Shown: piece by piece, positions 42,835 to 64,000 of the stretch | How the letters are laid out: each line of letters begins with the position of its first letter | How positions within the stretch are numbered: position 1 is the stretch's first letter | From: Octopus vulgaris | Taxonomy: Eukaryota | Direction of reading: 5' to 3' | DNA: 64,000 nt | NCBI GenBank assembly: GCA_951406725.2 | Contig: OX597827.1 | Location: 33,914,001 to 33,978,000, forward strand | Made by a program: the position numbers and the translations under genes | Notes under the pieces: model-generated | Databases searched by the model: none | Told to the model about the DNA's origin: nothing | Seen by the model: only the letters and a program-made list of their open reading frames with translations

Positions 42835-42885
42835 ATGGCGTTGCATGCATCGTGTTTACTGGAGATTTTTTTGGTCTCCTGTTTG
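42835..42885 (+). CDS. Gene B exon 1: signal peptide MALHASCLLEIFLVSCL
   Basis: Same length (51 nt), phase and G|GTAAGT donor as gene A exon 1; flanks homologous. Confidence 0.78.
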
Positions 42886-45520
42886 GTAAGTTGGAGTATA
42901 ATTTAATTGAGATATTTAGAATTTGATCGATTGATTAACTGAAAATTTGGATTAATTCTTATGCATTTTTGTGACCGTTGGCGATTTGATTTTGCTTTTT
43001 ATGTTTTGCTAAACTGCAAAGAGAAGGGCATTTTTCTTCTATTCACTGAGTACTAATGTATATATTTATTCTGTGTGTGTGTGTGTGTGCTGGCGTGGGG
43101 CCTGGTGATAAGAGTGCTGCACTCATGATCGTAAAATTGTGGTTTCGATTACTGGAAATGGTGATATATTTTGCTCTTGAACACAATACTTCATTTCACG
43201 TTACTCCAGTCCACTCAAAGAGCAAAAATAAGTAATCCAGCGTCGGACTAGGGTCCCGCCGAGTGGGAGATTTATATATACCACACACACACTCATGTAT
43301 ATAATTAGGCCTGTCTGCAAAAAATTTTCTTCCCCAAAATTTTTTGTTTATGGAGAAATGTTCTCCGTGCAGGCACCAGTCTTGTGCTACCATCGATTGA
43401 TAATTCTGGTTATCCTTCGAGTGCTTATGTATTAATGTTTATGGTTGGTTACTTTAACCATTCTTAGTACTTTCCACTTCTAAAAGTTCAGTTGTCCCTG
43501 TAAAGGCTTCATTATTTTTGCTATAGGAGAAGTAATTAATAGTTTAAAGAAAACAGAGGATACAAATAGAATATTTCCTTTTTAAATCCTTATACAGTCA
43601 TATTAAGTTCTTCTTTTGCCTACGTGACGTTTCAACCATTTGTTAGTGTTCATACTTGCTCTTTAAAGTGCGTTATGATGTAATAAATAAACAATGGTCA
43701 TTTTAACTGCTATTTTTCATTTCTCCCGAATGGAGAATTATTCTAACTGAATGGGAAAACTTTTGTTCCCTTATTCAACTGCATGGTAGATACTGTTCTA
43801 AAAATAGCTCAAAACTGACTTTTTGACCCGACTGGTCAAGGGAGGAAATTGTCGCCAAAATCTAGGTCATGTTACTATTCTTCGATTTTGGTTTTTGATA
43901 AAAAAAACATTAATCATTGTTTTTTGTAAAGTAGTCAGGACTTTCATTCGATTACTACTAATTTTATACTGTTCGTGCATCAGGCCCTTAAGGTGTTTTT
44001 CTGTGTTTTTATTATTCATAATTTAATATTTTAATATTGGTAGGTACTTGATTGTATTCGTTCTTATGCTATTATTATTTATATAATCGCTATTGTTATT
44101 AGTATTAATATTATTTGTAATTATTAATGTGTTAATATGAATAGATAAGTTCGTTATATTTTTTCGTATATCTAATTTATATTATGGATACCCAATTTAT
44201 TGATATCATATTTTTAGTCTCATAATATTTATTTATCATATTACTATATTAACCTTAAGTTTTCATTTCTAATATGTCCCCGAGACAGGTTTATTTATTC
44301 TTCTTATTCTTCAGTGTTTTGTATCTATCATGCATATGTTTATTTTTATGGACATGACTCATTGCTAATTAATTTAGGTTTTGATATCATAGTCTAGTAT
44401 ATTTTCTTTAACGTATTTCCTTTACTTCCAATATTGTGAAGCCACCTCATATATTCTGTTTTTACTATTTGTACTGTCCCCTCACATCTGCCTTTATATG
44501 TTTTGCTCGTATTAGTATTAGTGATATTAATATTAATATTTAAAAAAATTATTAATCTAGATATGTATCTCACTATTGTTGTTCAATATTTAATTTTATA
44601 TTGGAATACCTAGTTTGTTATTCTCATATTGGTATCATATTTTATGATATTATCTCTCTATAGTATTTATTATTCAATTATATTGGATAATTAATTTTTA
44701 TTATTAGATTGACTTATATTTTATATTTCTAGTATATCCCATACTCCATTCATGTTTCCAATATGCCCTATACCCGAGTTTCTTTTATTGTTACTATTAT
44801 ATCTTTATTTGTACCTATTGTACATATATTTAGCTTTATAAGCACAACTTTATCCTATTTCCCACGTATTGTTAATTAATTTACGTTTTGATGTGATAAT
44901 CTGGTAAATTTCTTCGACATATAGTTCCCATCTTTTTCTCCCTCTGCAGTAAGCTTTTACCTGGTCAATTATTTCCCACGTAAGTGTATAGTCCTTATTT
45001 TTATCTAATCGACCAAATTAGTTTGCTTAAGCACGTACTCTTTCCTTTGTGTATATCCTTAAAAGTTTTTTCATGATTTGCTATCCTTCTTTTTATATAA
45101 TTTTTCGTAGCTCCTATATAATAATATTCTTGCTCTTCTGATGTAATATTGCATCTACATATAACTTCTTTTACCCTACATTTAGAATTGAGCAGATATT
45201 GCCATCTCTTGGCAGAATCACAAGTTTTATTTTTTGGAATACTTTCTGTTTATCTATTATCTATTATGCTTTCAGAGTTTTCTTCTACATTTCTATTTTC
45301 TGGGTTTAGAGTAGTTTTCGTTCGTCCAAGATTATGGAGTTTTATCAATCTCGTCTTTATAATAAGATATATGTATGTATATATATATATATACATACAT
45401 ATATATATATATATATATATATATATATAATATAATATAATATATATATATAATATTATATATATATATGATATATATATATAATATATGACATATATGC
45501 ATGTATATAATATATGATAT

Positions 45521-45978
45521 TAGGCGCAGGAGTGGCTGTGTGGTAAGTAGCTTGCTTACCAACCACATGATTCTGGGTTCAGTCCCACTGCATGGCACCT
45601 TGGGCAAATGTCTTCTACTATAGCCTCGGGCCGACCAAAGCCTTGTGAGTGGATTTGGCAGACGGAAACTGAAAGAAGCCCGTCGTATATATGTATATGT
45701 ATTTATATATATATATATATATATATATATATATGTGTGTGTGTGTGTGTGTGTGTGTGTGTGTGTGTGTGTGTGTGTGTTTGTGTGTCTGTGTTTGTCC
45801 CTAACAGCTTGACAACCAATGCTAATGTGTTTACGTCCCCGTAACTTAGCGGACCGATAACATAAGTACTAGGCTTACAAAGAATAAGTCCTGGGGTCGA
45901 TTTGCTCGACTAAAGGCGTTGCTCCAGCATGGCCGCATTCAAATGACTGAAGCAAGTAAAAGAGTAAAAGAGTAAAAG
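45521..45978 (+). mobile_element. Full-length tRNA-derived SINE with internal (TA)n(TG)n and (GTAAAAGA)n tail
   Basis: AGGCGCAGGAGTGGCTGTGTGGTAAG head, GGGTTCAGTCCC B-box-like motif, tandem tail. Confidence 0.82.
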
Positions 45979-62228: not shown

Positions 62229-62764
62229 GTAAGCGGTTAGTTTTACGTTAAAATGTATTTGTTTTTTTTAAAACATTTTATAAGAAATGTTAGTGTAATA
62301 CTTATGACCCTGTTCAGTGTATTTGTGACTGTTGATAGAGAACAGAGGAAGTTATTCTCAAGCAAGAGACTTGATCACAGTGCTTGCAACTCCCACTAAT
62401 GTAACCCAAGGATCAGGTAAAAGTGTAAAACTTAGTGTTGGATTGTCTATCAACCACCAAGAGAATGTTCTCTTCGACAGACTTCCACACATATTTTCTT
62501 ACCTAGCAGTTTCCTCCTGCACGAGATTTCGGGCTGGGATATGCGTATGTGAGACTTTGTGTGCGTGCGTGCGCGCGCGCGCGCGTGTGTGTGTTTGTGT
62601 GTGTGTGTGTGTGTGTGTGTGTGTATGTGTGTGTGTGTGTGCGTGTGTGTGTATGTATAATACAAGTGAGAAGAAGAATGAATTTTTATTAGTTACAATT
62701 GTTTCGATACCACTTCGCTTCGAACGCCATTGCACGCAAATTGGACGTAACATGTCTGGTTGGT

Positions 62765-63345
62765 TAAGGCAGTGAGCTGGCAGAAACGTTAGCACGCCGG
62801 GCGAAATGCGTAGCCGTATTTCGTCTGCTGTTACGTTCTGAGTTCAAATTCCGCCGAGGTCGACTTTGCCATTCATACTTTCCGGGTCGATTAAATAAGT
62901 ACTAGTTACGCACTGGGGTCGATATAATCGACTTAATCTGTTTGTCTATCCTTGTTTGTCCTCTCTGTGTATAGCCCCTTGTGGGTAGTAAAGAAATAGA
63001 TGTTTCGTCTGTCGTTATGTTCTGAGTTCATCCTTTCATCCTTTCGGGGTCGATAAATTAAGTTCAAGTTACGCACTGTGGTCGATGTAATCGACTTAAT
63101 CCGTTTGTCTGTCCTTGTTTGTCCCCTTGTGGTTAATAAAAAAAATAAGAACCGTTAGCATACCGGGCGAAATGCTTAACGGCATTTCGTTTGTCGTTAA
63201 GTTCTGATAAAAATCCCCCGGGGTCGACTTTGCCTTTAACCCTTTCGGGGTTGATAAATTAAGTACCAGTTGTGTACTGGAGTCGATCTAATCGACTGGT
63301 CCCCTACCTCAATATTTCGGGCCTTGTGCCTAGAGCAGAAAAGAA
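62765..63345 (+). mobile_element. SINE equivalent to 58061-58462, with more internal repeats
   Basis: Same insertion site within the duplicated unit; three core copies instead of two. Confidence 0.78.
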
Positions 63346-64000
63346 TATGTGTGGTTGGTTGCATGGAGTAACACTTGATGAGACCAGCATCATGTTCTGC
63401 GTTCTTATATTGTACGATGTACATATGTTCTATGTTCCTTATATAGTGGGGTACCTGATGATAAGTATGTAATTATAATAAAAATCATGTATAAACTGAA
63501 ATAAAAACAAGACACCAATAGTGATGATAGAAGCAAGAAAATAAAACGAGTAAACAGAAGAACAGCACAACTCCAATGAATTATAAACTAGCACCGATAG
63601 AAGAGTCGTCTTAGTGATACCAGTGCCACAGAAAGTATATTGGCAGTATACAGTTTGGAGTGAATGACAAATATAAATAGTGGCAGTCCACGATGAGAAA
63701 ATAATAATGACACTAACGACAATTATTGGATGGAGAAGGGAAAGACAATGGAAGAGTGGTGGAGAGAGAATATCCAGAAAAACATCAAAACATTTACCAG
63801 TAACCTTCGGCGCTGGCAGCGGAATGTGACGGTGAAAACAGATTTCACAGAAATAAGTGGGTTAAAAATAAATGAATTAAACTAAAATAAAGTTAAATTA
63901 GAAAATGGTAAATTAGAATAAGTTTAAATTAAAGTGAAAATTAAATATTAGTATGTATAAATATTAAACGGACAAACATTAGGTTGTTTCGAAAATAATG

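Follow-up and report, generated by a model that had tools for sequence, protein, structure and literature searches.

The 64,000-nucleotide (nt) stretch of the Octopus vulgaris genome analyzed here (the window; G000:C14:33914001-33978000, G000 being the assembly and C14 the contig) contains two related genes, referred to as genes A and B. Further pieces of DNA from outside the window are designated L001, L002 and so on, each numbered locally, and those downstream of the window are free of N gaps. Gene B starts within the window, continues past its end and contains a tandem repeat of a two-exon cassette, the domains of which are called odd or even according to the exon number. The exons and repeat units of gene B, including the exon for its transmembrane (TM) helix, are the following.

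42835..42885, forward strand: exon 1, with the start codon and a predicted signal peptide (51 nt, phase 0 donor, hydrophobic N-terminus)
55191..55221, forward strand: exon 2, a micro-exon (31 nt, phase 0 to 1; from splice signals and frame)
56668..56916, forward strand: exon 3, odd PAN/apple domain of unit 1 (Pfam score near the cut-off)
57323..57553, forward strand: exon 4, even PAN-like domain of unit 1, with an in-frame 9-nt deletion
61333..61581, forward strand: exon 5, odd PAN/apple domain of unit 2 (Pfam PAN_3 and predicted fold)
61989..62228, forward strand: exon 6, even PAN-like domain of unit 2 (sequence likeness to the other units)
L001:2881-3129: exon 7, odd domain of unit 3 (genome search and fetched downstream DNA)
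L001:3535-3774: exon 8, even domain of unit 3 (genome search and fetched downstream DNA)
L002:2076-2569: TM exon, 12 kb beyond the window end
55610..60246, forward strand: unit 1, including the first junction at 58966-60246 (self-alignment)
60247..64000, continuing to L001:1799, forward strand: unit 2
about L001:1800-4875: unit 3

All six gene B exons inside the window have GT..AG borders, and the four domain exons among them are phase 1-1 and have lengths that are multiples of three. In the self-alignment, identity reached 89% over 2.9 kb, far above chance expectation, with an offset of 4665-4666 nt between units 1 and 2 and of about 5.55 kb between units 2 and 3. Joined together, the nine exons form a single open frame of 677 amino acids (aa), with six domains in three two-exon cassettes, one internal hydrophobic helix and 15 N-glycosylation sequons in the ectodomain. 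A first-pass annotation, made from the sequence alone, had described gene B as repeating the layout of gene A, and this was borne out by the exon mapping, the splice borders and the frame; moreover, exon 1 and its flank match gene A exon 1 at 81%. It had also held that the duplicated unit comprises only the two phase 1-1 domain exons, and indeed a search between the units with the flanked exon 1, micro-exon and TM exon of both genes gave no match. The anticipated in-frame join of exon 4 to exon 5 was recovered as a T+GG codon (Trp), a junction that gene A uses identically to enter its TM exon. Finally, the suspected continuation of the repeat past the window end was found in the downstream DNA, which holds the third unit and the TM exon, so that gene B has six domains, not just four. 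A genome-wide search returned at least five copies of each domain exon type: three in gene B, one in gene A and one in a third paralog, gene C, about 1.6 Mb from gene B.

9679..31495, forward strand: gene A, one cassette, 349 aa (exons 9679-9729, 16408-16432, 21718-21963, 24366-24605 and 31008-31495)
L013:5490-8546, L013:9509-9742, L014:914-1168 and L015:1271-1321, minus strand: gene C, one cassette

The identity of the domains was assessed by profile and structure comparison. Exons 5 and 7 scored 21.3 bits against the Pfam PAN_3 cut-off of 21.1, and exon 3 fell slightly below the cut-offs, with 21.0 bits for PAN_3 and 21.3 bits (E 0.00025) for PAN_1, the cut-off of which is 21.4. Odd and even domains align at five Cys, a Tyr, an Asn and a Leu, and a profile of the two kinds matched PAN-bearing chains of the PDB (6ryv, E 0.002; MIC4, E 0.009). 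As a further lead, a feature search of the Atlas returned PAN clusters at 0.91. The AlphaFold2 model of the exon-5 domain (predicted local distance difference test, pLDDT, 73.7; predicted template modeling score, pTM, 0.63) was superimposed on its top four structural matches, PAN/apple folds that include the HGF N domain, plasminogen and the leech anti-platelet protein, with Z 8.4 and a root-mean-square deviation of 2.8-2.9 Å over 76-78 residues. Nearly all of its top 25 structural matches were of PAN/apple or WSC type, and Foldseek agreed on PAN/apple (E 0.0045-0.01). On the modeled fold, in which a small sheet packs against one helix with the C-x3-C, C, C core, the odd domain is of the PAN/apple type, and the aligned residues make the same likely for the even domain. 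A single-sequence AlphaFold2 prediction of the whole protein (P0002) was set aside at a pLDDT of 33. Homologue searches with the PAN part matched three Octopus species only, which is weak evidence of its absence elsewhere.

Each even exon of gene B begins with a basic KIKR motif (57323-57340, 61989-62006 and L001:3535-3552), the corresponding residues being KKKH in gene A and QKK in gene C. It is a possible convertase site, cleavage at which would free single domains or pairs of them.

The three units differ from one another to very different degrees along their length. Between units 1 and 2, 86 of 444 sites differ in the 5' flank (55610-56056), only 34 of 1772 in the core (56057-57835), and 8.5% (47/553) in the 3' flank (58400-58965), which adjoins a junction that differs between its two copies at 5 of 1280 sites (p 4e-20). 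The 5' flanks of units 2 and 3, on the other hand, are identical across 470 nt. The 1.8-kb core, with both exons, lies 1.7-2.1% apart in all three unit pairs, with private letters in each unit, and protein identity among the units is 92-99%. With tract boundaries picked after inspection of the data, Fisher tests separated the junction tract (5/1750) from the core (37/1780) at p 4e-7, and the 5' flank from the core at p 1e-36. The 3' flank of unit 3 ends at L001:4875, where it is interrupted by another insertion. Apart from the substitutions, the two junctions differ by a 673-nt piece of a long interspersed nuclear element (LINE) in the second.

about 59240-59630: presumably a mariner-like remnant, in the first junction (label given by reading its sequence)
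L001:668-1340: LINE 3' fragment, 673 nt, 5'-truncated and young, in the second junction only

The LINE fragment ends in an (AACT)n tail, the end of its reverse transcriptase is still open, and by its motif it is presumably CR1/L2-like. It can serve as a genotyping marker for the third unit.

A public gene model from a second species bears on the age of the repeat. The O. sinensis RefSeq model LOC118765931 has two units and an N-terminus that is truncated or chimeric: an even exon of the deletion type is joined through the Trp junction to an odd exon, which is followed by another even exon and by the TM exon. The 9-nt in-frame deletion of exon 4 is also present in the first even exon of this model, which suggests that the duplication predates the split from O. 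sinensis. The contrast in unit number, two in O. sinensis against three here, is only suggestive, because LOC118765931 may skip exons.

These patterns fit an old duplication, homogenization of the core by gene conversion and a recent unequal crossover from two to three units. The segment from intron 2 to intron 4 would have been duplicated long ago, before the split from O. sinensis, and the 1.8-kb exon-bearing core would since have been held about 2% apart through conversion or crossover. A recent unequal exchange would then have copied the junction (0.3% apart), yielding the third unit, and one copy of the junction would have gained, or already had, the young LINE fragment. The first extra unit could instead have been a whole tandem paralog, B', that was fused to B by a deletion taking the TM exon of B and, from B', the promoter with exons 1 and 2; the product would be identical. 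Genes A, B and C themselves arose by whole-gene duplication, and in common alignment columns the 5' flank of units 2 and 3 is nearly as distant from that of unit 1 (17.8%) as each is from gene A (23%). Nothing of exon 1, the micro-exon or the TM exon survives in the junctions, but this would also be so after a clean deletion, and the two routes would produce the same trace; we regard such a fusion as possible but doubtful.

Duplicated units in an assembly may also reflect its two haplotypes. That the units are simply an assembled haplotype duplication is unlikely, since each carries private variants, the letters of all three were found in a DNA sequencing run, X2, the splice from unit to unit is seen in three of three aligned runs that are guessed to be RNA, and an O. 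sinensis gene model contains two units. X2 was one of the runs aligned to positions 55100-57860 (three of nine runs guessed to be RNA and one DNA run, from 24 listed), a target that contains unit 1 only, the unit-to-unit junction and units 2 and 3 lying outside it; the other units therefore show up as variants. X2 departs from the assembly at full depth at 55236, in single-copy flank, and so probably comes from another animal. Together with the unit-1 flank it carries letters of unit 2 (56546A, 56614T, 57648T, 57739T and 57764T) and of unit 3 (56418C and 56449T). The depth of its contigs (about 14 in the single-copy flank and about 20-35 in the core) was not taken as a measure of copy number. 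Variants also appeared in new combinations: run X14, guessed to be RNA, has the deletion together with the His-Lys codons of units 2 and 3, and X2 has no deletion together with the Tyr-Gln codons of unit 1. Such recombined sets fit a continuing exchange among units, although contigs may also merge copies.

A narrower version of the artefact is that two units are real and that the third was assembled as a mosaic from two haplotypes, with and without the LINE in the junction. The near-identity of the junction and the next flank between copies (5/1750) is allele-like, the presence or absence of the LINE looks allelic as well, the O. sinensis model has two units, and no spanning reads were seen. 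Under a mosaic, however, the 3' flank of unit 2 would be allelic to that of unit 1, yet these are the tracts that differ at 47 of 553 sites, and over 57836-58190 unit 2 resembles unit 3. Private variants in all three cores, the X2 letters diagnostic of three units and the lack of N gaps argue in the same direction, and the mosaic appears improbable to us.

The three runs guessed to be RNA (X13, X14 and X17) come from three studies under two organism labels, and were examined as contigs with depths of 2-12; none of the runs is recorded as RNA. In all three, an even exon is joined by its end to the start of an odd exon. In X13 and X17 the joint lands on GGTTTGG, a start specific to exon 5, and in X14 on the start common to exons 3 and 7; X14 is also spliced across the 406-nt GT..AG intron. 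Gene B is thus expressed at least as unit-to-unit joints, as judged from contigs of runs guessed to be RNA. The splice that had been predicted between units is present, in contigs, in each run, and these data did not show exons 5 and 6 to be always missing from transcripts. The contigs are restricted to the domain exons, except for two short X17 matches on a pyrimidine repeat.

The symmetric exons had also been read as allowing skipping or mutually exclusive use of cassettes. Skipping would indeed stay in frame, and was not observed. Mutually exclusive use is unsupported, because it would not yield even-to-odd joints, which occur in the three runs (as contigs, with back-splicing possible) and in the O. 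sinensis model. Serial splicing of all cassettes by default is most likely, with skipping possible. We consider it highly improbable that the units are alternatives, whether with one cassette per transcript or with free skipping, in a Dscam-type diversity of isoforms: every one of the six domain exons is of phase 1-1, has a length divisible by three and is bordered by near-identical splice sites, so that every skip would be in frame, but the same joints speak against it, and choice among near-identical units would bring little diversity.

Altogether, we consider it probable that the 677-aa frame of gene B encodes a predicted type I membrane glycoprotein with six likely PAN/apple domains, the repeat having arisen through an intragenic duplication long ago, conversion and, recently, an unequal crossover. 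Several points weigh against this, in addition to the allele-like junctions and LINE discussed above. Pfam gave no match for the even exons of gene B, nor for the domain exons of genes A and C. Four of the five codons changed between exons 3 and 5 are non-synonymous, and the unit exons are no more conserved than the introns of the core, so that purifying selection on the extra units is unsupported. That the runs are RNA is a guess, and a contig does not represent a single molecule; among the rows listed, no contig reaches the signal or TM exon, and the micro-exon is uncovered. Moreover, the X14 contig, 481 nt long, may represent a circle, and some of the joints could be back-splices. These last observations raise the alternative that a recombination-prone locus produced the extra units as neutral by-products and that the joints are largely back-splices from circular RNA. 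The X14 contig comprises the two exons of one unit, no break is seen where the TM exon should branch off, and synonymous changes between units are not in excess. Nevertheless, two runs land on the exon-5-specific start, all eight domain exons of genes A and B are open with their cysteines intact, despite a duplication that is old by its flanks, and the units differ by a single exon indel, which keeps the frame. We give this alternative very little credence.

Returning to the product of a serially spliced gene B, divergence between genes A and B is 24.8% and 20.6% in the domain exons, against 19-23% for nearby introns, with the cysteines kept, and 11.5% in the membrane module described below. 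Recognition proteins typically combine a fast-changing ectodomain with a conserved anchor, and the varied ectodomains of relatives that share the module also fit a recognition role. The product would thus be a cell-surface recognition or adhesion receptor for glycans or proteins, to which the PAN domains would bind, with the Ser/Thr stalk and the neck of CxCxC and coiled coil holding these domains away from the membrane. In the 26-residue tail no signaling domain is obvious, which suggests ligand tethering or signaling via a partner. Because the units are 92-99% identical in protein, extra cassettes would increase valence and reach, and would not add specificities.

Genes A and C show what a single cassette looks like in this family. 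In gene A, the signal exon and a micro-exon of 25 nt precede two Cys-rich exons of phase 1-1, and the terminal exon encodes a Ser/Thr stalk, CxCxC, a predicted coiled coil, the TM helix and a short tail. The terminal exon of gene C encodes 1018 aa (A, 162; B, 164), and Ser/Thr repeats account for the surplus; the stalk of gene C, about 900 residues long, lies in one exon, with an RFRR furin-like motif near the stalk start. Consequently, of the three close paralogs, one is lengthened by cassettes (B) and one by its stalk (C). The proposed accordion-like receptor family stands insofar as a gene for a type I membrane protein does contain an in-frame duplication of a cassette, but is overstated as a family trait, because expansion is found in only one of the three.

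Partial relatives of gene A were found in O. sinensis (LOC118765932) and O. bimaculoides (LOC106880439). In the public models P0001 and P0003, genes A and B are merged and several exons are shortened, and O. sinensis isoform X1 (P0005) links the odd exon of gene A to the even exon of gene B, which may be a mis-annotation or read-through splicing. The present analysis corrects the public gene models at this locus. A degenerate 96-nt partial copy (76%) of the gene A TM exon lies at 29898-29993, about 1 kb upstream of the true exon, and the stalk exon of gene C also shows comparable partial copies.

The terminal exons of all three genes share a membrane-proximal module, located as follows in genes A and B.

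31187..31462, forward strand: gene A membrane module (CxCxC, predicted coiled coil, S..R..S.D.R.S and a TM helix ending in Asp)
L002:2261-2536: gene B membrane module

Identity among the modules of A, B and C is 84%. The 92-residue segment from CxCxC to the TM helix was found at 16 places in the assembly, eight of them on the contig of the window between 33.9 and 35.6 Mb. The module matched 739 protein clusters (clustered at 50% identity, E up to 0.001), the nearest clusters of the Atlas were unnamed and mostly molluscan, and no Pfam family scored above its cut-off; matches to PrkA, DUF6272 and ODAD1 on the coiled coil were below theirs and were rejected. Among 155 aligned stretches, S39, R43, S47, D50, R52, S54, G59 and D77 are 93-100% conserved, and in 133 of them the module lies at most 40 residues from the C-terminus. 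A glycosylphosphatidylinositol anchor was set aside, as about 26 residues follow the hydrophobic helix, and a three-copy complex prediction of the module scored 0.02, which is no evidence either way.

The module occurs beneath many ectodomains. The best 150 matches included 75 of at least 200 aa, and 36 of these 75 carry another Pfam domain: C-type lectin in 16, IgGFc-binding in nine and sushi in three; EGF, TSP1, ephrin-receptor-like and FaMeT-like in two each; and PAN, SRCR, kringle, PLAT, F5/8 and DUF7283 in one each. For ten module proteins the source was looked up, and nine were from mollusks (abalone, mussel, limpet, cuttlefish, scallop, clam, two oysters and periwinkle). Five further genes ending in the module lie between genes B and C (L021-L040; C14:34.23, 34.31, 35.01, 35.16 and 35.24 Mb). 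Within 40 kb upstream of these five, in a search that left out the eight loci on other contigs, a profile of the six exon types detected no PAN exon like those of A, B and C, nor did it find one on the other fetched DNA (best other E 0.03). The literature searched, with subscription journals mostly outside it, held no description of the gene or the module, which is weak evidence.

The unnamed molluscan module is the less ordinary part of gene B and the lead most worth following. Tentatively, and with considerable doubt, mollusks may possess many undescribed single-pass recognition receptors that form one large superfamily on this module, onto which lectin, IgGFc-binding, sushi, TSP1, SRCR, kringle and PAN ectodomains would have been shuffled as phase-1 exons; in the octopus PAN branch this process would still be under way, cassette number and variants would differ between individuals and species, and the stalk would vary fifteen-fold, tuning the valence and reach of immune or self-recognition. 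If the module is a shared socket for signaling or assembly, it would organize many 'uncharacterized' mollusk proteins and provide candidates for cephalopod immune or cell-recognition receptors.

Other observations concern the introns and the neighborhood. Mariner-like transposase remnants in intron 1 of gene B (49366-50540) and of gene A (10574-11739) are 89% alike and in opposite orientations, and a near-perfect inverted repeat of 261 nt (48888-49147 and 50550-50810) encloses the copy in gene B. A 441-codon open frame at L010:5451-6773, about 83 kb downstream of gene B, is a candidate major-facilitator transporter of the monocarboxylate type.

We compared gene B with known systems at the levels of fold, repeat and family. 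The predicted fold of its odd domain is like that of PAN/apple proteins (HGF N, plasminogen, factor XI, prekallikrein, Toxoplasma MIC4 and leech anti-platelet protein), but identity is just 9-19%, gene B has no protease or kinase domain, and its membrane module and exon layout are unrelated to those of these proteins. Symmetric one-exon domains that are duplicated in tandem, with conversion among copies, are found in CD163/WC1, DMBT1 (SRCR) and CEACAM/PSG. The SRCR and CEACAM/PSG families are vertebrate families with other domains and known ligands, and have no homology with gene B. In a Dscam-type array one member is present per mRNA, which does not hold for gene B in the contigs, with the caveat of possible back-splicing. 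Gene B also recalls the polymorphic Biomphalaria PTC2/GRC genes of snails, which are clustered, fast-evolving, unannotated molluscan genes for single-pass membrane proteins (PMC7494358). The same paper gives PTC2 proteins no known domains and no homology beyond gastropods (PMC7494358), and gene B is set apart from them, by description only, in having PAN domains and a module common to molluscan classes.

The closest parallel may be the kringle IV type 2 (KIV-2) repeat of human LPA, an intragenic tandem cassette with two exons and a length of about 5.5 kb. Each cassette encodes a single kringle of a secreted protein, people have from 1 to more than 40 copies, and multi-copy variants have been ascribed to duplication or gene conversion (PMC4378929). 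Like KIV-2, gene B has a head-to-tail multi-kb cassette with symmetric exons in one open frame, and variants swapped between copies (a 2% core inside 18% flanks, together with X14 and X2). Unlike KIV-2, gene B has three copies of a cassette in which each of the two exons encodes an entire PAN-type domain, and its product is a predicted membrane protein. By analogy, and with no homology claimed, the gene B repeat would work like KIV-2, making gene B an invertebrate case of a known mode of gene lengthening, with three layers of history readable in its flanks.

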